From: an uncultured delta proteobacterium
GTDB taxonomy: Bacteria > Desulfobacterota > Binatia > Binatales > Binataceae
Direction: 5' to 3'
Assembly (NCBI GenBank): GCA_963808235.1
Contig: CAWEEQ010000004.1
Location: 2,619,611 to 2,683,610 of the forward strand
Length of the DNA: 64,000 nucleotides
Under the pieces are notes generated by a model, which was not told the DNA's origin, did no database searches, and saw nothing but the letters and a program-made list of their open reading frames with translations. Both the position numbers and the translations under genes were made by a program. Shown one piece after another: positions 33,833-42,131 of this stretch (position 1 is the stretch's first letter; each line of letters opens with the position of its first letter).

Positions 33833-34279
33833 ATGCGTTCGACGAAATTCAAAATACTAGGCGGCGTCGTGCTCGCGGTGGGCGTGGGATTCTTAGTCTT
33901 CACCTCGAGTTCAAACTGCCGGATGGTGACCGGCCGCGAGGCGGTCGACGTCAACGTATCCGCGATGCGTCCGGGAAGCGCGCAACTGTTTTGCTACACG
34001 GACGACGCGGGCAAAAGACTTCGCTTCGTGCTCGCGCGCGGCACCGACGGCAAAGTGCGCACCGTGTTCGACGCGTGCCGGCAATGCTTCACGTTCCATC
34101 GCGGGTACCAGGTGGTGGGCGGCGAACTAATCTGCCGGGTATGCGGCAACCACTACCGCATCGATCGAATGGCCGAGGGCAAAGCGTCGTGCGTGCCGGC
34201 AAGCCTGCCGCATGAAGACGGGTCGGGGGTGGTGAGAATCAAGACCTCGGACTTGCAAGCCGGGCACGCGCTCTTCTAA
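33833..34279 (+). CDS. membrane-anchored Cys-ribbon protein (CxxC...CxxC), uncharacterised
   Basis: N-terminal TM helix; FDACRQC...ICRVCG four-Cys motif; immediately upstream of SCO1. Lacks the H/M-rich motifs of PCuAC. Confidence 0.5.
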   Translation: MRSTKFKILGGVVLAVGVGFLVFTSSSNCRMVTGREAVDVNVSAMRPGSAQLFCYTDDAGKRLRFVLARGTDGKVRTVFDACRQCFTFHRGYQVVGGELICRVCGNHYRIDRMAEGKASCVPASLPHEDGSGVVRIKTSDLQAGHALF

Positions 34280-34287
34280 GCAAATCC

Positions 34288-34899
34288 ATGAATCAAGGCC
34301 GCACCAGTCGTGTTCGCGGACGAGTCTTCTCGATCGTCGCCGTGGCGTTTCTGGTTGTTTTCTCGGCATGCAATCGGGAGGCGGCCGGCGATTATCCGGC
34401 GGCGAACGGGAATAATTGCCTGCCCGATGTGAGTCTGATCGATCAGCACGGGAGTACTGTTTCGCTGGCCTCGCTGAAGGGCAAACCGGTGCTGATCGAT
34501 TTCATCTACACGTCTTGCGCGTCGACCTGCCCGGTACTGACGGCGAAGATGGTGTCCGTGGCGCGCCAACTCGGCCCCGCTCTGGGAGCCAACGTGACGA
34601 TTGTTTCGATTACGCTCGATCCCGAGCACGACGGTCCCGCGCAACTCGCGAGCTATGCGAAATCGCAAGGCGCCGACGCTCGTGGGTGGCTGTTTCTGAC
34701 CGGCAAGCCCGCCCAAGTCGACCAGGTGCTCGCGCTGTTCAAGCTGCGGCGGATGCGCGAGAGCGACGGATCGATCACGCATTCGGTGTCGGCATTCCTG
34801 CTCGGTCCCGACGGCCACCAGGTTCGCCAGTACAATGCACTCAACGTCAACGCGAGCGCGGTAGTCGGCGATATCGATCGCTCGCGCGGCAAGAGTTAA
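34288..34899 (+). CDS. SCO1/SenC family copper chaperone (thioredoxin fold)
   Basis: LKGKPVLIDFIYTSCASTCP (CxxxC) ... TLDPEHD ... conserved His in SITHSV. Confidence 0.85.
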   Translation: MNQGRTSRVRGRVFSIVAVAFLVVFSACNREAAGDYPAANGNNCLPDVSLIDQHGSTVSLASLKGKPVLIDFIYTSCASTCPVLTAKMVSVARQLGPALGANVTIVSITLDPEHDGPAQLASYAKSQGADARGWLFLTGKPAQVDQVLALFKLRRMRESDGSITHSVSAFLLGPDGHQVRQYNALNVNASAVVGDIDRSRGKS

Positions 34900-34902
34900 C
34901 CG

Positions 34903-35223
34903 ATGGCAACCTCGCTGGGAATCGATCGGCTCTCTATTCGTCAACTTGCCGGCGCGATGGCGCTGGTGATGATGATTGCGAGTCTGCCGGCGATCGGCGT
35001 GATCGTCATTGCCGATCGTGCGGGGCCAACTATATCGCTCGACATCTGTCATCCGCTGCAATCGCTCGACGCGTCACCAGGCGCCGTGTCGATCGCGCGC
35101 CCCGCGCAGCCGGAGATTGGCATCCAGATTCTTGCGCATGAGGCATTTGCCCAGTTTGTTCCCATTGCGAAGAGTAAATTCGCCGAGACTCCCGATCCGC
35201 CTCCGCCCAAGTCGCTCTGCTAG
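34903..35223 (+). CDS. small single-TM protein with conserved C-terminal TPDPPPPKSL motif (uncharacterised family; paralog of 37617..37931)
   Basis: LVMMIASLPAIGVIVIA TM; ICHPLQ; ARPAQPE; ends ETPDPPPPKSLC. Clear paralogy with 37617..37931. Confidence 0.5.
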   Translation: MATSLGIDRLSIRQLAGAMALVMMIASLPAIGVIVIADRAGPTISLDICHPLQSLDASPGAVSIARPAQPEIGIQILAHEAFAQFVPIAKSKFAETPDPPPPKSLC

Positions 35224-35316
35224 ACGGACACCCTTACATTTTTTCGCAGATAGACGATTGCTCGCGGACCTCGACGGTTCGCGAGAGCAGGATACGGCCC
35301 GAGCTGGCCGCGGTGG

Positions 35317-36291
35317 ATGCTTATGCGGAGGAATTTTGTTTTTGCGTTGATAGCCGTGCTGGTGTTGCGCGCGAGCGCGGCATCCGCGCACGGAGTTGTG
35401 GGAGACTACGTGTTCCTTGAGCCGCTGGTGGCCGAGGATCCCACTCCCGCCAATGAGCTGGACATCCTGGCGCCATCGTGGGTCAGAAGCAGCGACGCTA
35501 ATGACTACTCGATCGGATTCTCGGGCGAGAAAGTTCTTTGGATCGACGACAACTACATGCCGACATTCAGCCTGGCGGCCGGTACGGCGTGGCATCATGT
35601 TTCGCCGTTTAACATCTCTGTGCCGCGATCACGGGTCCTCGGAACGCTCGCCCCACTGCACACACCCAGCCACGAAGGAGTTGATAATCCGGAGGTAGCC
35701 GCAAAATGGGCCTTCTTCTATTCGCTGCCACATGAGTTTCTGACCTCGGTAGCATTGGTAGCCGACTTGCCGGTGGGCAACAGCGCGATCCGGAATCAGA
35801 GCCACACGAGCCTAGGTCCGGAACTGCTTATGGAAAAGGGTCTCGGCGACCTTCCCAATATGCCGGTGCTGAAATATCTTCGGCCGCTGGGACTCCAGGG
35901 CAACGTCGGTTATTTGCCGGCACTAGGCGGGCAGACCAGTCATGACCTGTTTGCCAATGCTGTGATTGAGTATTCGCTCCCGTACCTGAGCAACAATGTT
36001 CAGGATATTGGACTCAAGTGGCCGCTCCGCAACCTCTACCCGTTCGTGGAAATCAACTACGATCAACTGGTCAAAGGACCATCGGGCCAGACATTCCCCT
36101 CGATCCTGGCGACCCCCGGCATCGCGTACGTCAGCTATCACTTCGAACTGAGCCTTGGCACTCAGTTCGCGCTCAACGACGCAGCCCGACCCGGCACCCA
36201 TGCCGCGGTGCTTGGTCTGCTGGACATTTTTTACGATTCGTTTTTCCCGAAATGGGGCAACTGGACTATCAATCGAGGACCCGGCCAATGA
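35317..36291 (+). CDS. exported hypothetical protein; predicted mature N-terminus begins with His (ASAASA|HGVVGDY); translationally coupled (ATGA) to copC
   Basis: Signal peptide MLMRRNFVFALIAVLVLRASAASA; amphipathic beta-strand-like C-terminal region. No recognised family. Confidence 0.55.
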   Translation: MLMRRNFVFALIAVLVLRASAASAHGVVGDYVFLEPLVAEDPTPANELDILAPSWVRSSDANDYSIGFSGEKVLWIDDNYMPTFSLAAGTAWHHVSPFNISVPRSRVLGTLAPLHTPSHEGVDNPEVAAKWAFFYSLPHEFLTSVALVADLPVGNSAIRNQSHTSLGPELLMEKGLGDLPNMPVLKYLRPLGLQGNVGYLPALGGQTSHDLFANAVIEYSLPYLSNNVQDIGLKWPLRNLYPFVEINYDQLVKGPSGQTFPSILATPGIAYVSYHFELSLGTQFALNDAARPGTHAAVLGLLDIFYDSFFPKWGNWTINRGPGQ

Positions 36292-36668
36292 AGACTTCGA
36301 AAATGTGCGTATCGGGTGCGGCGCTAGTTGCTATTGGGATGAGCTTTGCGATCGTGGCGTGGGCACATTCGTTTCCCGAGTCGGAGACTCCGTCGGCGGG
36401 ACAAACGGTCGCATCCGCTCCCGCCGAGATAACGATCAACTTCGACGCTCCGATAGAGAAGCTGTTCGCCAAGCTGGAAGTGACCGGCGCCGACGGCAAG
36501 AACGAAGCGGCCGGCGCTCCGCAGATCAGCGACGACGGACGGCGGATGTCGGTGAAGGTCAACGCGCTCAAACCCGGCGACTACGCGGTCAAGTGGGCCG
36601 TCGTAGGTATCGATACGCATCATACGCAAGGCTCGTACACGTTCGCGATCGCAAGCGGAGGATCGTGA
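36288..36668 (+). CDS. copC: copper resistance protein CopC (periplasmic Cu-binding, His1 mature N-terminus)
   Basis: Signal peptide ...IVAWA|HSFPESETPSAG; KPGDYAVKWAVVGIDTHHTQGSYTFAI matches the CopC fold. Confidence 0.85.
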   Translation: MKTSKMCVSGAALVAIGMSFAIVAWAHSFPESETPSAGQTVASAPAEITINFDAPIEKLFAKLEVTGADGKNEAAGAPQISDDGRRMSVKVNALKPGDYAVKWAVVGIDTHHTQGSYTFAIASGGS

Positions 36669-37531
36669 TCGAACCAGCGGTAATTCTGGCCTGGCCATTG
36701 ATCACGGCCCAGATCGTGATTTTTGGAACTGCGGCTTTTGCGCTGATGACATCACCTGGCGAGGTCCCGGGCGGCGATGGACCGACCCACGCCCTCATCG
36801 TGCTATGGCGCGGACTGGCGCTTGCGATTCTTGCAATTTCGCCGGTGAGGTTCCTGGCCGTGGCGGCCGGCATGGCCGACACTACGTTGAAGGAAGCCAT
36901 TCCATTTGTGCCGCAGATAATGCGCGAAACATTCGCCGGGCGGGTGTGGGCATGGCGACTCGGCGTCGACGCGATTCTGGCGATTGCGGCGTGGCTTCCA
37001 GCGCGTCGGAAGCTCCCGGTTCTGATCTCCGCGATTTCGTGCGCACTGCTCCTATTCCAGAGCGTCACGAGTCACGCGGTGGATAGCGGCGCGTACGCGA
37101 TCGCAATTGTATTCATTCATCAGGTTGCCGCGGGCTTGTGGATCGGAGCGCTGGTAACCTTGCTGGTTGGAGCAACCTTCGGCCGCGCGGGCGCCGAGTG
37201 GCTCAAGTGGGCTTCGGGGCGAGTGTCAACGACTGCGGGATGGTCGGTAGCGGCGCTTGCCATCACCGGCGCGATCAGGGCGTGGTACGCGCTCGGACTG
37301 CGCTACGACCTGCTGGTGTATTCGCTCTACGGCCGCACCCTGCTCTGGAAGCTCGCGACCGCGGCAACGGTGATTCTGATCGGCGGATACAACCGCTATC
37401 GCCTGGTGCCGGCAGTGGGCGAAGCGTCGGCGCGCACGACGCTGATTCATAATGTCACCCTGGAATGCCTGCTGCTGGCCGCGGTTCTCGGTTGGTCCGC
37501 GCTGCTGGCCAACACGCCGCCGCCGCATTGA
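36665..37531 (+). CDS. copD: copper resistance protein CopD (8-TM membrane protein)
   Basis: GTG start overlapping the copC stop (GTGA); polytopic; conserved His residues (FQSVTSHAVDSG..FIHQVAAGLW). Confidence 0.8.
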   Translation: MIEPAVILAWPLITAQIVIFGTAAFALMTSPGEVPGGDGPTHALIVLWRGLALAILAISPVRFLAVAAGMADTTLKEAIPFVPQIMRETFAGRVWAWRLGVDAILAIAAWLPARRKLPVLISAISCALLLFQSVTSHAVDSGAYAIAIVFIHQVAAGLWIGALVTLLVGATFGRAGAEWLKWASGRVSTTAGWSVAALAITGAIRAWYALGLRYDLLVYSLYGRTLLWKLATAATVILIGGYNRYRLVPAVGEASARTTLIHNVTLECLLLAAVLGWSALLANTPPPH

Positions 37532-37616
37532 CGAAAGTTTTGCGCCAGGCACCGCGATCGCGATGCCAATGGACATTGAACTCGGGGGACGGTTACTTTA
37601 GAACGGTAACTGCGCT

Positions 37617-37931
37617 ATGAGGCAATTCTTTTCAAAGGCGGACTTGCGGGACCTGAGTTTGGTCATGGCCATAGTGATGCTGTTGGCCAGCATCCCCGTG
37701 ACTGAGGGGTTCGTCGTCGTCTCGAGGCCGAGCGGACCAGAATTGACCGCCAACATTTGCCAGCCGATTCAAATGTTCGACCGCGCGTCGAACACGTTGC
37801 TCGCGCGCCCCGCGGCCGTCGCGCCGGAGGTCGTTCTCTGCGATCTGGGCCCGGCCGCGATAAAGGAGACGGTGCGATTGGTCGACATCAAGATCGCTCC
37901 CGACACTCCGCCCCCAAAGAGCCTCGTCTAA
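37617..37931 (+). CDS. small single-TM protein with C-terminal DTPPPKSL motif (paralog of 34903..35223)
   Basis: LVMAIVMLLASIPVTEGFVVV TM; ICQPIQ; ARPAAVAPE; ends APDTPPPKSLV. Confidence 0.5.
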   Translation: MRQFFSKADLRDLSLVMAIVMLLASIPVTEGFVVVSRPSGPELTANICQPIQMFDRASNTLLARPAAVAPEVVLCDLGPAAIKETVRLVDIKIAPDTPPPKSLV

Positions 37932-38018
37932 GAACTCTCGACAACGTTTCCTCTGATAGCCACGCTGCGAACCTCGCGGCGGAAGGCGTTTTCTCTGAGG
38001 CAAGCGGCGCGCCGCAAG

Positions 38019-39002
38019 GTGTCCGCTGGGAGATGTTCTATGCGACGGAGTTATTGGGTTGCCCTGTTGGCAGGAGCGGCCGTTTTTCTGATCGGCCTGA
38101 CGCCCGATCTGAGCTGGGCCTGCGCTTGTGGATGTGGAGTCTACGAAGTCGGTACCGCAGCGTTGTTTCCGACCGACCACGGCGGAACGGTCTGGTTGGA
38201 GTATGACTACCAGGATCAGTACCTGAACTGGCATGCGACCCAAATCGCCTCAGGGGCCAAGAATGGCGACAAGAGAATCCGGACGCACTTTCTGACTCTC
38301 GGTGGTCAGTACATGTTCAACCGGAGTTGGGGAGTGCAGCTGGAGCTCCCGTACGCGTTTCGCTACTTCAAATCGACCAACGACGCCGGCCAGATTTTCG
38401 GGACCAACTTCAACACCATCGGGGACATCCGTATCCAAGGAATGTACACCGGGCTCTCGGAAGACATGTCGACGGGGCTGATGGCCGGCGCGAAGTTCCC
38501 GAGCGGATGGTGGACTTATCCGCATGCCGATCGAGACACCCAGATTGGCTCGGGGAGCACCGATCTACTGCTCTCGGCTTACCATCTCGGAACGTTTCCA
38601 ACCCATGTTGGGAAGCTGCCGCTGACGTTCAGGGATCGCCCTTTCAACTGGTTTGTGCAGGCGTACGAGGATTTCCCGGTTTTCACGCAAGACCACTATA
38701 CCCCGGGAAGGGAATTCGACTCGGCGCTGGGGGTCTACTACAACTTCGGCACGGTTGGCCCTTTGAAGGAACTCGCGCCGATGCTGACCTTTCTCGCTTC
38801 CGACCGCGCGCGTGACCAAGGCGCCTCTGCCAATCATGAGAACAGCGGCTATACGCGCTTTCTCATTGCTCCTGGAGCCGAGATCAAACTCGGAATCTTG
38901 CGACTATACGGAGACGTCGAGGTCCCGTTTTTTCAAAATATGATTGGTAATCAGATAACCGCGCCGCTCCTGTTCAAGACCATTGTAAGCTACGACTTCT
39001 AG
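38019..39002 (+). CDS. putative outer-membrane beta-barrel protein with CACGCG motif at predicted mature N-terminus
   Basis: Signal peptide ...LTPDLSWA|CACGCGVYEV; alternating-hydrophobic strands; C-terminal ...LLFKTIVSYDF (aromatic terminal residue typical of OMPs). Confidence 0.55.
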   Translation: MSAGRCSMRRSYWVALLAGAAVFLIGLTPDLSWACACGCGVYEVGTAALFPTDHGGTVWLEYDYQDQYLNWHATQIASGAKNGDKRIRTHFLTLGGQYMFNRSWGVQLELPYAFRYFKSTNDAGQIFGTNFNTIGDIRIQGMYTGLSEDMSTGLMAGAKFPSGWWTYPHADRDTQIGSGSTDLLLSAYHLGTFPTHVGKLPLTFRDRPFNWFVQAYEDFPVFTQDHYTPGREFDSALGVYYNFGTVGPLKELAPMLTFLASDRARDQGASANHENSGYTRFLIAPGAEIKLGILRLYGDVEVPFFQNMIGNQITAPLLFKTIVSYDF

Positions 39003-39011
39003 GAGCATCAG

Positions 39012-39545
39012 ATGCGCTCAAAAATGTCCTGGTTCGCCGCAGTTGTTGCCGGGATCCTTGCGTTTGCCGGTTCCAGCACTTTCGCGCGCGCGGCCACCGA
39101 TGTCGGTCAGCCCGCGCCCGCGCTGGTCGTGCCGGAACTGGACGGCCAGGCGTTTGACCTAAGTGCGATGCGCGGGAAGGTCGTAATCGTCAATTTCTGG
39201 GCCACCTGGTGTCCTCCCTGCCGCGAGGAGATGCCGGCCCTCGACAGTTTCTATCGGCGCTATCATGGTCAGGGGCTTGAAATGATCGGTCTCAGCTCCG
39301 ACCGCCCGCACAATCGGTCCGACGTGACCAAGGTCATGCAATCATTCAGCTATCCGGCGGCGATGCTGGATGACGCCAAGGTCAACGAGTTCGGCACATC
39401 CAGCGTTCTGCCGATCACCGTCATCGTGGATAGAAATGGCGTGGTGCGCGCGAAGCTTACCCCCGATCAAACCCCGGTTACCGAGAAGAGTCTATCCGAC
39501 GCGGTGCTACCGCTGCTGGCGCAAAGTTCGGCGGCGAATCCTTAG
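39012..39545 (+). CDS. TlpA/ResA-family thiol-disulfide oxidoreductase
   Basis: Signal peptide; VVIVNFWATWCPPCREEMP (WCxxC). Confidence 0.8.
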   Translation: MRSKMSWFAAVVAGILAFAGSSTFARAATDVGQPAPALVVPELDGQAFDLSAMRGKVVIVNFWATWCPPCREEMPALDSFYRRYHGQGLEMIGLSSDRPHNRSDVTKVMQSFSYPAAMLDDAKVNEFGTSSVLPITVIVDRNGVVRAKLTPDQTPVTEKSLSDAVLPLLAQSSAANP

Positions 39546-39552
39546 GCTCCCA

Positions 39553-39882
39553 ATGAAGACCTTCGCCTTACTCGCGATCATTCTGATGGCTGGATGCTCA
39601 GCCGCGAACACTCACACCGGTGATATGGATCCGAGGCTCGCTGACCTGGAAGCACAGAGGCAGACGATCGCCGGGCGCGAGAAAAAGTGCATCGACGAAA
39701 CGCAGGCGCGTAGCCATGATCAAGTGGAGCGCGATCGGGAAGTTTTGGAATGCCACGCGACGGCGCATCACGAAAACGCCGAAATCTCCGAGCAAGAGCG
39801 CAAAGAATATGAGCTTCAGGCGCAGGAGGAGAGGCATCGTGCTTCCCTTATGGCGATTCTTACGACCTCTCAGCCACGCTGA
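39553..39882 (+). CDS. small lipoprotein, charged/coiled, Cys-His-rich (hypothetical)
   Basis: Lipobox LMAGCSA; KKCIDE...LECHATAHHENAE. Visibly lower GC than the neighbours. Confidence 0.45.
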   Translation: MKTFALLAIILMAGCSAANTHTGDMDPRLADLEAQRQTIAGREKKCIDETQARSHDQVERDREVLECHATAHHENAEISEQERKEYELQAQEERHRASLMAILTTSQPR

Positions 39883-39887
39883 GGACT

Positions 39888-40529
39888 ATGAATGGAAGTA
39901 GAATGGATTCGAGTCGAACTGCAGCCGATCTTGTTCATATGACTTCAACAGTGTCGATCGCCAGTACTGATTCGGCGCGCATCCCACAGGGAGGGGGTCT
40001 CGGAATGCAGGTTCTGCGCGATCTCGGTGGGGTCGCGCTGCTCGCAATCGCGTCGCTCGCGGCTGGACTCGTGATTAACCGGTTTTCACACGGCCCGCTT
40101 CCAGTCGTGTATCAGACGCCAGAGGAGCGGTTCGATGCCGAGCTGACGACTCTGGTCGCGGCGCCGCCGTTTAAGATCGCGCCCGCGGCAACGGTCGGAC
40201 TCGATGAATTCCGCAAGGCCGTCGAAAGCAAGAGTGCGCTCATCCTGGATGCGCGCCCGTCCGTGTTCTTCGAACAGGGACACGTCCCGGGGGCGCTCAA
40301 TCTCGCGCGAGACGACTTCGCGCGCGACTATCGGAACTTGGCTGGCGTGCTGCAGGCCGCCCATGACAAACCGATCGTCGTGTATTGCTCCGGTGGCGAC
40401 TGTCATGACAGCCGGCTGGTTGCGAACGCGCTGCTGAGTCTCGGCATCAACAATGTGACGATCTTCACCGGGGGTTGGAATGAGTGGTCGGCGGCCGGAC
40501 TGCCGGCATCGACGGGGAGCGGACCATGA
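39888..40529 (+). CDS. membrane-anchored rhodanese-domain sulfurtransferase
   Basis: ALILDARPSVFFEQGHVPGALNL ... PIVVYCSGGDCHDS (active-site Cys loop) ... GGWNEW. The true start may be internal. Confidence 0.75.
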   Translation: MNGSRMDSSRTAADLVHMTSTVSIASTDSARIPQGGGLGMQVLRDLGGVALLAIASLAAGLVINRFSHGPLPVVYQTPEERFDAELTTLVAAPPFKIAPAATVGLDEFRKAVESKSALILDARPSVFFEQGHVPGALNLARDDFARDYRNLAGVLQAAHDKPIVVYCSGGDCHDSRLVANALLSLGINNVTIFTGGWNEWSAAGLPASTGSGP

Positions 40530-41014
40530 TGACGCTCGACAGCTCGCGCCGCTACGTCGTGTTGGCGATCAGCGCGGTGCTGGCCGGCGTGTTCATCTAC
40601 GCGGGCATCGATAAGATTCGCGACCCGCTGCAGTTTGCGGATAGTATCGCGGCATTCGCGATCCTGCCGGTCGTGTTGATCAACCTGCCTGCGATCGGGT
40701 TGCCACCATTCGAGATAGGTTGCGCGCTCCTGTTGCTTCCGCCGGCGACCAGGCGGATCGGTGCGCTCGCCGTGGCTCTTCTGTCCGTCGTTTTCATGAT
40801 CGCCCTGTCGTCCGCACTGCGTCGAGGTCTCACGCTCGACTGCGGATGTTTCGGGACCGGCGCGCCGTCGCGGCCGAGAATGTGGTTGGAGCTGGCGCTG
40901 GACGCAGGTTTGTTCGCGGGCGCGGTGTTCGTCTATTTGAGCTCGATCGCCCGCCTCTCCGCGCGGACGCCGTCTCTCTCTTCTTCACCGCAGCCTCAGG
41001 TTACAAACGAGTGA
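40526..41014 (+). CDS. MauE/DoxX-family redox-associated membrane protein
   Basis: 4 TM; LDCGCFGTG motif typical of MauE; ATGATGA overlap with the rhodanese gene. Confidence 0.7.
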   Translation: MMTLDSSRRYVVLAISAVLAGVFIYAGIDKIRDPLQFADSIAAFAILPVVLINLPAIGLPPFEIGCALLLLPPATRRIGALAVALLSVVFMIALSSALRRGLTLDCGCFGTGAPSRPRMWLELALDAGLFAGAVFVYLSSIARLSARTPSLSSSPQPQVTNE

Positions 41015-41044
41015 CCGGCGACAACAACAATCCAAATATCAGGA

Positions 41045-41656
41045 ATGGATGCAAATATGAGTATTCATCGTAGTCTCAGATCTCTAGCTATCGTCGCAGC
41101 AATAACGTCGAGCCTGCTCGCGGTGACTGGATGCCATCGCGGCGCCGCCGCGGATGACGCGGCCGCCTCGAACTGCCTCACGGACACCAGCCTCATCGAT
41201 CAGAATGGCGACAAGGTCTCGCTCGCGTCGCTCAAGGGCAAGCCGCTGGTGGTGGATTTCATCTATACGTCGTGTCCGGGGCCGTGCCTGATGGAGACGG
41301 CGAAGCTGGCCAACGTCGCGCTTCGATTGGGAAGCGATCTCGGTTCAAAGGTCATGATCGTTTCGATCAGCGTCGATCCCGAGCATGACGGGCCCAAACA
41401 ATTGCTCGCTTACTCGCGTCAGCAGGGCGCGGACGAGAAGGGCTGGTATTTCCTGACCGGAGGTCCCGGCGACGTCGACAAAGCGCTGGCGGGTTTCAAG
41501 CTCAGCAGGCAAATCGAACCCGATGGCTCGGTCGGGCACCTGGTCGATATGATGCTTATCGGACCCGACGGGCGGCTGGTTCATGAATACAACGGCGAAG
41601 TCGTAAAAGCTCAGACTATCGTCGATGATGTCAGGAAGACCCTGAACAAGAGTTGA
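41045..41656 (+). CDS. SCO1/SenC family copper chaperone (second paralog; lipoprotein)
   Basis: Lipobox LAVTGC; LKGKPLVVDFIYTSCPGPCL (CxxxC); SVDPEHD; about 50% identical to 34288..34899. Confidence 0.85.
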   Translation: MDANMSIHRSLRSLAIVAAITSSLLAVTGCHRGAAADDAAASNCLTDTSLIDQNGDKVSLASLKGKPLVVDFIYTSCPGPCLMETAKLANVALRLGSDLGSKVMIVSISVDPEHDGPKQLLAYSRQQGADEKGWYFLTGGPGDVDKALAGFKLSRQIEPDGSVGHLVDMMLIGPDGRLVHEYNGEVVKAQTIVDDVRKTLNKS

Positions 41657-41666
41657 AGGGTGCAGC

Positions 41667-42131
41667 ATGAGACGAGCAATCATTTTCGGATCTTCGCTCG
41701 CGACGATTCTGGCGCTGGCATATTTGTGGCCGATGGTCGCTGGTTCGTCGGCGCAGAGCGGCGGTCCTCGCGGAGCGATGTGCGTCGCGGGCCATTGCTG
41801 CTGCTCGGGACGCGCAGAGGCGCAGACCGTCGCGGCTAACGAATCACAAGGCGCTCCGACGCTCGATCCAAAGCAGTTCGTGGGTCCGGTAAGAGAGGCG
41901 TACACATTTGCGGGGAAGGATCCCGCGCTGCTGGCGCAACTGCATTGCTACTGCGGATGCGACAAGGCGTTCGGTCATCAGAGCCTGCTCGATTGCTATC
42001 GCGGCACCCATGGAGCGACGTGCGAGGTCTGCACTCAGGAGGCGTTGCTGGCGAAGCGCATGTCGGAGCAAGGTTCGCCGGTCGATGAGATACGCAACGC
42101 GATTCGCAGAAACTTCGCGCCCGACAATTGA
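41667..42131 (+). CDS. PCYCGC-motif protein (Cys-rich, secreted)
   Basis: Signal peptide; GHCCCSG; LHCYCGCDKAFGHQSLLDCYRGTHGATCEVC matches the PCYCGC family signature. Confidence 0.6.
   Translation: MRRAIIFGSSLATILALAYLWPMVAGSSAQSGGPRGAMCVAGHCCCSGRAEAQTVAANESQGAPTLDPKQFVGPVREAYTFAGKDPALLAQLHCYCGCDKAFGHQSLLDCYRGTHGATCEVCTQEALLAKRMSEQGSPVDEIRNAIRRNFAPDN

Follow-up and report, generated by a model that had tools for sequence, protein, structure and literature searches.

Candidate CutF/CruR-like leader ORFs ahead of predicted outer-membrane barrels in a copper island of an uncultured Binatia bacterium

CopL, a small exported protein with the same cysteine-spacer-proline architecture as CutF and CruR, is encoded directly upstream of copper genes and acts as a cis regulator. 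Like those two, it senses copper as a nascent chain and stalls at its C-terminal proline motif. CutF and CruR are likewise small and exported: in each, a fixed stretch of ~45 residues separates a Cys motif from a proline arrest motif at the C-terminus, and the copper genes that each regulates in cis lie directly behind it (PMC9973294, PMC9426467). The Cys-to-PPP distance in CutF is 45 residues, which has been explained as ribosomal tunnel plus membrane (PMC9973294). In CruR, 45 residues also intervene, a number conserved within 1–2 residues across DUF2946, and adding five residues breaks regulation (PMC9426467). The operon partners of DUF2946 genes include TBDT, Sco, CopC, YcnI and AhpC_TSA (PMC9426467).

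The copper island and its two small genes

We analyzed a 64,000-nt stretch of DNA (the window) in which a sequence-only reading had picked out two small ORFs, each with a signal-peptide-bearing protein of ~325 aa some 90 nt behind it (35317..36291 and 38019..39002), as a tandemly duplicated and undescribed copper handling or signalling module. All four ORFs are present, the two large ones being 324 and 327 aa long, and the island reads as follows.

33833..34279, + strand: DUF2318/FtrD-like protein, 148 aa, one N-terminal TM plus a CxxC...CxxC domain (Pfam PF10080, E=3.5e-18)
34288..34899, + strand: SCO1/SenC copper chaperone, copy a (Pfam PF02630, E=2.6e-28)
34903..35223, + strand: small gene A, 106 aa, candidate CutF/CruR-like copper-sensing leader ORF
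35224..35322, + strand: spacer A, 99 nt, with a pyrimidine-rich stretch, two hairpins and a Shine-Dalgarno sequence (SD)
35323..36291, + strand: large protein A, predicted 12-stranded outer-membrane barrel (listed ORF start 35317)
36288..36668, + strand: CopC, mature N-terminal His (Pfam PF04234, E=7.8e-22; NCBIfam CopC)
36665..37531, + strand: CopD inner-membrane copper protein, ending ...NTPPPH (Pfam PF05425; NCBIfam CopD, E=1.4e-32)
37617..37931, + strand: small gene B, 104 aa, candidate second leader ORF of the same family, deep "B-type" clade
37932..38039, + strand: spacer B, 108 nt, with two GC-rich hairpins and SD GGGAG (38028-38032)
38040..39002, + strand: large protein B, predicted 12-stranded outer-membrane barrel, C-terminus SYDF (listed ORF start 38019)
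39012..39545, + strand: TlpA/ResA-like periplasmic thioredoxin (Pfam AhpC-TSA/Redoxin; NCBIfam ResA/TlpA)
39553..39882, + strand: conserved 109-aa lipoprotein, no Pfam or NCBIfam match, found after TlpA in B modules by synteny

Both large genes follow the small ones closely, but the corrected spacers are 99 nt (A) and 108 nt (B) rather than ~90 nt. The start of large A was moved to the second ATG (35323, MRRNFVF) on the basis of conservation across 25 loci; that of large B is probably 38040 (MRRSYW). The proposed ATGA coupling of the large A stop with the copC start (36288/36291) was borne out, and large B does end in ...SYDF. Pfam and NCBIfam also confirmed the copper neighbourhood (SCO1, CopC, CopD). 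The island as a whole holds SCO1 twice, CopC, CopD, a TlpA-like thioredoxin, a CYCXC protein and a DUF2318/FtrD-like protein, and related loci add YHS-domain and COX2-like genes; this context matches the DUF2946 partners TBDT, Sco, CopC and AhpC_TSA. By synteny, SCO1 copy a lies between the FtrD-like gene and small A in the genus Binatus only, and the TlpA/ResA-like gene constantly follows large B.

Neither the small nor the large proteins had a match in Pfam or NCBIfam. In structural models, both large proteins are predicted to be 12-stranded barrels of the FapF/COG4313 class, and FapF, a peptide secretion channel, was among the best structural matches. Large A has an invariant mature N-terminus (A↓HGVVGDYxFLEP) and five invariant His residues; the mature N-terminus of large B (W-A↓CACGCGV, hence CxCxC) does not vary either. 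The two are probably copper-uptake or copper-delivery routes, with copper as the presumed substrate. Large A and large B share no similarity detectable by BLASTP (E=0.69) or hhalign (probability 0.6%). The 106-aa and 104-aa ORFs are indeed paralogs (37% identity over 100 aa, BLASTP E=6e-17), but a tandem duplication of the pair did not hold up, and the module is no doubled small-plus-large unit: the large partners are unrelated in sequence, and small A and small B sit in deeply separated clades. In most related genomes the small gene is present only once.

A small-protein family with a fixed Cys-to-proline distance

Small A and small B are members of a stand-alone family whose 122 clusters have so far turned up in Binatia only. 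The elements that A and B had been noted to share, namely an N-terminal hydrophobic segment, IC[HQ]P[LI]Q, ARPA and a PD[PT]PPPKSL tail, proved to be hallmarks of this family. Small A has its export/anchor segment at about residues 15-38, followed by D47-I-C49-H-P-L-Q, ARPA at 65-68 and P97-D-P-P-P-P-K103, then three residues and the stop; small B has N46-I-C48-Q-P-I-Q and P95-D-T-P-P-P-K101, again with three residues before the stop. Across the family, conservation is limited to three parts: the N-terminal export/anchor segment, an invariant Cys in D-I-C-[HQ]-P-L-Q, and a C-terminal P[DE]xPPP[KR] that ends three residues ahead of the stop; to these, residues of the TM region (S-L-P..G) and ARPA add further conservation. 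One Cys is invariant, and the adjoining His is replaced by Gln in the B type and is variable elsewhere. The hydrophobic segment spans ~23 residues with positive charges ahead and a possible V-x-[SA] cleavage site after it, and the ~65 aa beyond are A/P/S/L/V-rich and variable. The dN/dS of the small genes is 0.33.

Among 73 diverse members, we found no sequence match to DUF2946 or any other Pfam family. What ties them to an already described family and its partner is architecture, not sequence. The family is unannotated, as had been claimed, but this kind of element is not undescribed (CutF, CruR, CopL). The small proteins are a new sequence family in uncultured Binatia that most likely embodies an already known kind of device.

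Over the 91 cluster representatives in which both motifs were found, the Cys lies 46-50 residues ahead of P[DE]xPPP in 90, and 47 or 48 residues ahead in 77. The spacer between the Cys and proline motifs measures 42.7 +/- 0.7 aa, though its sequence varies, and both window copies place the first Pro of PPP 50 residues after the Cys. We read this fixed distance as a ruler, while the conserved TM residues and ARPA count against a pure ruler because a ruler would not need them. Under the rule-based criteria of PMC9973294, both small genes classify as CutF-like on every count: a length of 104-106 aa, PPP(P) within the last eight residues, an N-terminal hydrophobic segment preceded by positive charges, and a same-strand downstream gene at 99/108 nt.

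Gene partners, spacer RNA and the role of the small genes

The gene that follows 49 small genes is large A in 23 cases, large B in 21, and SCO1, a YHS protein or a TonB-dependent receptor in one case each, the last behind a distant family member; in the other two the downstream gene is cut off by the contig end. Small proteins that are nearly identical precede large A in some genomes and large B in others, a genome with both barrels usually holds only one small gene, and in many genomes large A occurs with no small gene of its own. The small gene shows no preference for a particular downstream partner. Of the 49, 42 are preceded by an FtrD-like gene; window copy B and loci L034 and L042 have none adjacent. 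Within the operon the small gene does not come first; as a rule the FtrD-like gene precedes it, and in distant loci the two often overlap or lie within a few nucleotides of each other. This arrangement fits a protein partnership equally well as regulation.

On balance, we favor the reading that the small proteins are a divergent single-Cys family of CutF/CruR-like cis-acting regulators, with a putative mRNA switch. Each small gene would be a cotranslationally exported leader ORF whose N-terminal hydrophobic segment brings the nascent chain to SecYEG. By the time the ribosome arrives at P[DE]xPPP[KR], a candidate polyproline stall site four codons ahead of the stop, the invariant Cys motif 50 residues upstream would be just out on the periplasmic side. 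The state of this Cys (free, copper-loaded or disulfide-bonded) would alter the length of the stall, and the stall length would set expression of the gene ~100 nt downstream, either through remodelling of a structured spacer around the SD, as in CutF, or through control of Rho access, as in CruR. The controlled genes would be the two unrelated 12-stranded barrels with copper-ligand N-termini, large A with His1 and then CopC-CopD, and large B with CxCxC and then TlpA and the lipoprotein. The analysis shows the architecture, how the motifs are spaced, where conservation falls, the synteny and the predicted class of fold, and from these we infer both the stalling and the copper sensing; that copper would repress, as it does the uptake genes under CruR, is our guess. 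As for the proposed "copper handling or signalling module", the copper link is carried by the island genes and "signalling" may be close to the mark, but the unit is not a small-plus-large pair.

In spacer A, hairpin 1 (35261-35285) has 10 bp and hairpin 2 (35295-35310) has 5 bp and a variable loop, with the SD (GGTGGA) at 35312-35317. Across 25 Binatus loci, a single conserved unit runs from the 3' end of the small gene through a ~95-nt two-hairpin spacer and the SD to the first codons, AUGCGGAGG, ahead of either barrel body. The SD/start region is predicted to be mostly paired (mean unpaired probability 0.25); RNAalifold retains only the two hairpins, neither of which covers the SD. Fold z-scores are weak (-0.4 to -2.0), compensatory changes were found in none of the helices (paired cells 91.2% vs 90.9% in shuffles), and in-silico masking of the ribosome footprint at PPP left the SD closed (0.23 vs 0.25, p=0.26). 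These last three results weigh against the leader reading, as do the lack of a DUF2946 match, a single invariant Cys in place of CxxxC or CXXC, and a position behind another gene in the operon.

It is unlikely, but worth weighing, that the small protein is instead a stable structural subunit, an inner-membrane-anchored periplasmic adaptor or copper relay. Its PDPPPPK tail would be docked on or threaded into the 12-stranded barrel, and its Cys would hand Cu(I) to CopC, SCO1 or the FtrD-like CxxC domain. Such a subunit would account for the conserved TM-segment residues and ARPA, the tight and often overlapping junction with the FtrD-like gene, the barrel almost always downstream, and a ~65-aa periplasmic part that could span the periplasm if extended. 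However, it has not co-diversified with barrel type, since the same small protein stands before unrelated barrels, a TBDT, SCO1 or YHS; the single small gene usual in genomes with both barrels also speaks against it. Moreover, a docking tether needs no spacer fixed within one residue and free in sequence, and the position and spacing of the motifs copy those of CutF and CruR.

A dual role strikes us as quite improbable: the small protein would act as a nascent-chain sensor, then persist as a membrane-retained partner of the FtrD-like/DUF2318 protein, whose CxxC and the single Cys would together form the actual copper or thiol-sensing site. A lone invariant Cys is a poor Cu(I) chelator, and DUF2318 proteins with two periplasmic CXXC motifs are found in copper regulons and also beside thioredoxins; the upstream FtrD-like gene, often translationally coupled, is consistent with this role, but the three loci without it are not. 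We give very little credence to a secreted substrate, in which the ~65-aa Cys peptide, its signal peptide cleaved first, would pass through the FapF-like barrel to become a surface or extracellular copper-binding peptide: the match to FapF, the variable, A/P/S/L/V-rich periplasmic part and the possible cleavage site suit it, but one member precedes a TonB-dependent importer, large A often works without its own small gene, a ~23-residue segment is long for a cleaved signal, and the fixed spacing and terminal PPP are left without explanation.

Comparison with known systems

The large proteins resemble the COG4313 channel Pput2725 (PDB 4rl8), FapF (5o65) and PcoB (7pge) in having a conserved N-terminal segment, possibly a plug. 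They differ in that they match neither Pfam Phenol_MetA_deg nor CopB, have His1 (large A) or CxCxC (large B) at their N-termini, and are set among copper genes rather than in a context of amyloid secretion or of hydrophobic uptake. In the fetMP-fetABCDEF cluster of Campylobacter jejuni (PMC10783030), FetA (DUF2318 + YHS) and FetE/F likewise combine a two-CXXC periplasmic DUF2318 domain with periplasmic thioredoxins, and related loci here have YHS genes; FetA, however, has eight TM segments and belongs to an iron-uptake cluster, whereas the DUF2318 protein here has one TM and precedes a candidate leader ORF.

Read as leader ORFs, the small genes share with SecM, MifM, VemP and ApdA-type arrest peptides an N-terminal export/TM segment, a C-terminal arrest motif by the stop, and cis control of the next gene through spacer RNA, which here would be putative. 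Those peptides monitor the export machinery, not metal, and their arrest motifs differ. CruR (Bp2923) of Bordetella pertussis, a DUF2946 protein (PMC9426467), also resembles the small genes: it is encoded by a uORF, has an export signal, an inter-motif spacing conserved within 1-2 residues and a long spacer (162 nt), and controls copper-uptake genes. Its motifs are CXXC and RAPP rather than a single Cys and P[DE]xPPP[KR], it acts by Rho-dependent termination independently of signal peptide and EF-P, DUF2946 genes head their operons while the small genes do not, and the small family is not hit by Pfam's DUF2946 model.

CutF of the Rhodobacter capsulatus cutFOG operon (PMC9973294; bioRxiv 10.1101/2025.02.05.636593) shows no detectable sequence homology with the small family, has CxxxC and two further Cys where the small family has one, and precedes a Tat-exported multicopper oxidase instead of a Sec-signal outer-membrane barrel. 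The small gene is not operon-first, in its ~100-nt spacer neither of the two hairpins obviously covers the SD, and its host is one of the Binatia, not of the Pseudomonadota. Nevertheless, CutF is a 118-aa exported protein with an N-terminal Sec signal and a periplasmic Cys motif ~45 residues before a C-terminal PPP plus basic residue near the stop (GPPPRL). It lies directly upstream of a copper gene across a structured spacer, and its rule-based "CutF-like" relatives, like the small genes, are found ahead of outer-membrane proteins, TonB-dependent receptors and copper chaperones.

Gene order and neighborhoods of the small genes

The gene order places the copper island within a lipid-A gene cluster.

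Genes of the copper island and its flanks, in order of position
5' of the island, + strand: skp, fabZ, lpxA, lpxI and a Gfo/Idh oxidoreductase gene, in that order
33833-34279, + strand: DUF2318/FtrD-like protein
34288-34899, + strand: SCO1
34903-35223, + strand: small A (106 aa)
35317/35323-36291, + strand: large A, the exported protein encoded after small A
36288-36668, + strand: CopC
36665-37531, + strand: CopD
37617-37931, + strand: small B (104 aa)
38019/38040-39002, + strand: large B, the exported protein encoded after small B
3' of large B, + strand: TlpA-like thioredoxin, then a family-less lipoprotein, rhodanese, MauE/DoxX, a second SCO1 and a CYCXC/PCYCGC protein
3' of the CYCXC/PCYCGC gene, + strand: lpxB and msbA

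The sequence-only reading had described the coordinates, motifs and neighbors of the four small and large genes correctly, and small A and small B are indeed paralogs (37% identity, E = 6e-17). Its proposal that each small gene and its partner form a tandemly duplicated two-gene module could not be upheld: large A and large B have no detectable relation (BLASTP E = 0.69; profile-profile probability 0.6%), and the small genes fall into deep, separate clades, window small B grouping with the locus L031 and with copy 2 of the locus L026. The small-protein family beside the copper genes is real and unannotated, while the pair itself had been over-read as duplicated.

Related loci came from a genome scan (34 loci, all Binatia) and from a metagenome scan run with divergent members (12 more), and the next gene was recorded for 49 small genes. 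It was large A in 23 cases, always followed by copC-copD, and large B in 21, usually followed by the TlpA and lipoprotein genes. Single cases had SCO1, a TonB-dependent receptor, or a YHS-domain gene and then an IS element, and two were cut by contig ends. For the receptor, beside the distant member L034, a copper-specific type was not supported, as it gave only generic TBDT matches far below cut-offs. In the small-protein tree, partner types A and B are intermingled even between near-identical sequences (for example, L008 with L012 and L004 with L006), hence the small gene does not co-evolve with the gene downstream. Two small-gene copies were found in the window and in L026 only. At L026 10457-11832, a YHS-domain gene comes after small copy 1, and then, encoded on the opposite strand, an IS-type transposase; beyond these lies a further module of FtrD-like gene, small B and large B.

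The earlier reading had missed a conserved third partner. No upstream neighbor is more constant than the DUF2318/FtrD-like protein, which has a single TM segment and CxxC...CxxC (42/49; window 33833-34279; L031 9479-9946; L026 13497-13964). SCO1 lies between it and the small gene in the genus Binatus. In distant loci, the two genes abut or overlap, the FtrD-like stop often overlapping the small-gene start. DUF2318 also occurs in Firmicutes CsoR copper regulons and in C. jejuni FetA. In the distant island L031 (12436-14546), the genes between the SCO1 copies encode a protein with two YHS domains and a COX2-like cupredoxin whose C-terminus is Cys-rich (HGNCDAGCGCG); this might be one of the system's client cuproproteins.

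Across Binatus (33833-42131 compared with loci L001-L029), the island is modular and sits between the Gfo/Idh gene and lpxB; the large B-(SCO1-CYCXC)-TlpA-lipoprotein-rhodanese-MauE cassette occurs in some loci and not in others, and may stand before or after large A-copCD. Binatus large-B genes share the initial M-[LF]-M-R-R codons of large A, which suggests that cassettes are exchanged just inside the first codons. The lipoprotein kept after TlpA in B modules (39553-39882) is a 109-aa helical protein (MKTFALLAIILMAGC...) with several His and Cys residues and has no family in Pfam or NCBIfam. The distal half of the island (39888-42131) encodes the rhodanese, MauE/DoxX, SCO1 and the CYCXC protein (NCBIfam OS_HP4_CYCXC, E = 2.6e-33). 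Several weaker, below-cutoff matches there to selenoprotein-containing family models (WAxxUGC, rhodanese LYCAU, TsoB) hint at a thiol or selenol redox set tied to copper handling. CopD ends in ...ANTPPPH (37511-37531), with PPP one residue before the stop and 85 nt upstream of small B, and an inverted repeat, GTTAC-N9-GTAAC (37584-37602), directly upstream of the small B start codon could be an operator or a chance occurrence. Promoter and terminator scans found nothing, and the 64-kb window (1-64000) has no tRNA genes and no Rfam family at the gathering threshold.

The small-protein family and the spacer behind it

A word-indexed search returned 197 close relatives of the small proteins, every one labeled 'hypothetical', and an exhaustive profile search of 1.84 billion representatives expanded the family to 122 clusters (E<=1e-3). 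Fusions were absent and almost every member is a stand-alone protein, mostly of ~75-140 aa; most full-length ones have 100-110 aa. One match, P0395 (1,258 aa), was discarded as a repetitive, low-complexity artefact. None of 73 diverse members matched a Pfam family, and small A, small B, large A and large B matched no Pfam or NCBIfam model, save the weak Pfam match of large B given below; PDB sequence and profile searches assigned none of the four window proteins to a known family. The small proteins likewise had no TonB_C match and end three residues after PPPK.

The alignment is almost gapless and conserved in three islands only. The first consists of Arg residues and, after them, a hydrophobic stretch of ~23 residues with S-L-P..G; the second is P-x-[FL]-T-[LI]-[DN]-[ILV]-C-[HQ]-P-[LI]-Q, with an invariant Cys that precedes His in most members and Gln in the B type, and with no CxxxC; the third is P-[DE]-x-P-P-P-[KR], which leaves three residues before the stop (PDPPPPKSLC in small A, PDTPPPKSLV in small B). 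P99 and P100 (small B numbering) are invariant across the 73 diverse members. Where both motifs were located, the Cys precedes P[DE]xPPP by 46-50 residues in 90 of 91 representatives (by 47 or 48 in 77), and in both window copies it stands 50 residues before the first Pro of PPP. What lies between the motifs, 42.7 +/- 0.7 aa rich in A/P/L/S/V, is highly variable in sequence. Given a median dN/dS of 0.33 across 17 A-type genes, the small gene is a real coding gene under relaxed constraint.

Conservation also extends past the stop codon. A single block, running from the small gene's final codons through a ~95-nt spacer and the SD into the opening codons of the following gene (UAUGCGGAGGAA), is conserved across 25 Binatus loci, irrespective of whether that gene is large A or large B. 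Its conservation fixes the start of large A at the second ATG (35323, MRR...), the sole ATG conserved across the 25 loci, with an SD (GGTGGA) 5 nt upstream. Large B probably starts at ATG 38040, which the SD GGGAG fits, and the listed starts, 35317 and 38019, are probably wrong. The gap from the small gene to the conserved start is then 99 nt in A and 108 nt in B (91-105 nt in the 25 Binatus loci).

Shortly before the SD come two conserved hairpins, one at 35261-35285 and one, whose loop varies, at 35295-35310; both were recovered by RNAalifold, with no compensatory change in their pairs. Single-sequence folds gave z-scores from -0.4 to -2.0, and in predictions little of the SD/start region is unpaired (mean unpaired probability 0.25). 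In module A, the polyproline codons (CCUCCGC) are perfectly complementary to GCGGAGG, which lies at the start of the next gene; the equivalent pair in module B is ACUCCG and CGGAGU. A long-range helix between the polyproline codons and the start region is nevertheless unsupported: over the 25 loci, 91.2% of cells were paired versus 90.9% after shuffling, and 10/25 have a broken central pair, with one compensatory case (L009). Masking the footprint of a ribosome stalled at PPP did not open the SD in silico. Two further candidates were set aside: an anti-SD role for CCU codon choice, which by eye is not enriched among independent lineages, and a basal helix between the U-rich 5' part of the spacer and AUGCGGAGG, which appears in single-sequence folds and is absent from the RNAalifold consensus.

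The exported proteins downstream

AlphaFold2 modeled large A and large B, at moderate confidence, as barrels of ~12 strands (pLDDT 72 and 79, pTM 0.70 and 0.76) with a COG4313-type 12-stranded fold. Neither had a COG4313/Phenol_MetA_deg Pfam match at E<=1; large B alone had a weak OMP_b-brl match, a PDB profile search found nothing, and PcoB/CopB was neither a sequence match nor the best structural match. One match to large A was 100% identical over 99% of the query. In the alignments, the mature N-terminus of large A (HGVVGDYxFLEP after Ala) is invariant, along with five His residues, as is that of large B (CACGCGV after W-A). Together, alignment and models argue for two sequence-unrelated members of one fold class. 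The short, extremely conserved N-terminal segments carry ligands typical of copper: the putative mature large A has His as residue 1, as in CopC, and large B carries CxCxC. We infer that the N-terminal segment of each barrel might form a plug; AlphaFold2 confidence is <50 there (large A residues 22-46, 35386-35460, numbered from the listed start 35317; large B residues 34-54, 38118-38180, numbered from 38019).

The passage of copper through the outer membrane for cuproenzyme assembly is poorly understood. The two unannotated outer-membrane barrel families, one with 455 database relatives and the other with 2,603, are flagged as candidate copper channels; they have invariant N-terminal His or CxCxC and lie beside CopCD and TlpA/SCO1.

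Candidate leader ORFs compared with CutF and CruR

Descriptions of copper sensing by nascent chains across the membrane date only from 2022-2023 and concern DUF2946 proteins, which come mostly from Pseudomonadota and Bacteroidota. We think it reasonably probable that the small genes are leader ORFs of this type. The architecture behind this reading, which suggested an arrest peptide and matches a device known from the literature, comprises an export segment, the Cys motif, a fixed ~50-residue spacer of free sequence, a polyproline motif beside the stop, a structured ~100-nt spacer and a copper gene. Since the downstream genes look like uptake or assembly genes (outer-membrane channel, CopCD, TlpA), our guess is that copper would repress them, as in CruR.

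Five misfits keep our confidence in leader ORFs moderate. There is no sequence match to DUF2946; there is one Cys rather than two, and some members lack the adjacent His; the gene lies within its operon, after the FtrD-like gene to which it is often translationally coupled; residues of the TM segment and the ARPA motif are conserved; and no mRNA switch emerged from the RNA analyses above. We also considered whether the family might have arisen independently of CutF/CruR, without homology, as a second transmembrane stalling sensor, with a single Cys, a trans partner and new channels. Sensing would then need the DUF2318/FtrD-like CxxC protein or SCO1/TlpA in trans; at the periplasmic mouth of SecY, this partner and the nascent chain would together clamp Cu(I) or be joined by a mixed disulfide. 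Such a partner-assisted nascent-chain sensor would act inside the operon, not at its head, and would control two new 12-stranded copper-uptake channel families, whose His1 or CxCxC plugs would gate the entry of copper through the outer membrane. We regard this as doubtful.

That the small protein is instead a stable adaptor or relay subunit seems unlikely. The conserved TM-segment residues and ARPA motif speak against a leader ORF; however, a leader ORF accounts, as a structural partner does not, for a spacer fixed to within one residue, for conservation in three islands, for the indifference to which protein is encoded downstream, and for the joint conservation of small gene, spacer and start codon. 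A dual role, in which the DUF2318 protein would act as co-sensor, is quite improbable in our judgment. The N-terminal hydrophobic segment may be a signal anchor, and a secreted peptide is very improbable, a possible V-x-[SA] cleavage site after the segment notwithstanding.

How closely do the candidate leader ORFs of this family resemble the known sensors? CutF of Rhodobacter capsulatus is exported cotranslationally and works only in cis (PMC9973294; bioRxiv 10.1101/2025.02.05.636593); copper on its periplasmic CxxxC prolongs stalling at a C-terminal PPP (GPPPRL), and the 45-residue distance has been explained as ribosomal tunnel plus membrane (PMC9973294). CruR controls a TonB-dependent transporter through Rho, and adding 5 residues breaks its copper regulation (PMC9426467). 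Operons of the DUF2946 family contain TBDT, Sco, PCuAC, YcnI, CopC and AhpC_TSA genes, and Roy et al. (2022) accepted both signal peptides and signal anchors for DUF2946 (PMC9426467).

By the CutF-like rules of Ozturk et al. (2023), both window proteins are below 150 aa (106 and 104 aa), end in a C-terminal PP motif and are followed by a downstream gene (gaps of 99 and 108 nt); judged by hydropathy, they may also have the N-terminal signal, a hydrophobic stretch of ~23 columns after Arg residues. For the putative Cys/His metal site, they offer one invariant Cys with an adjacent His in most members and Gln in the B type. Scanned by rule, the whole window yielded only small A and small B as stand-alone candidates. 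To DUF2946 (PF11162) there is no sequence match: hmmscan against Pfam-A gave none for either window protein at E<=1 and none among the 73 diverse members at E<=0.1, and the CXXC of DUF2946/CruR is replaced by a single-Cys [DN]-[ILV]-C-[HQ]-P. DUF2946 genes come first in their operons, whereas the FtrD-like gene (and SCO1) precedes here on the same strand in 42/49, often overlapping, and small B follows copD.

Taken together, the small-protein family is most likely a new, divergent variant of the recently described device and not, as had been proposed, a new device. It lies outside the reach of the DUF2946 model and in an uncultured soil phylum. It has the same three elements and ~50-residue ruler with one Cys, and thereby tests which features of transmembrane stalling sensors are essential and what the stalling mechanism really needs. 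Such leader ORFs have probably been missed in annotation well beyond the known family. Compared with CruR, the Pro motif differs (P[DE]xPPP[KR]) while its position, with three residues after K/R, is the same, and the Cys-to-P[DE]xPPP spacing of 46-50 agrees with the ~45-residue inter-motif distance of DUF2946, conserved to within 1-2 residues; the family argues that spacing, not sequence, is the functional core.
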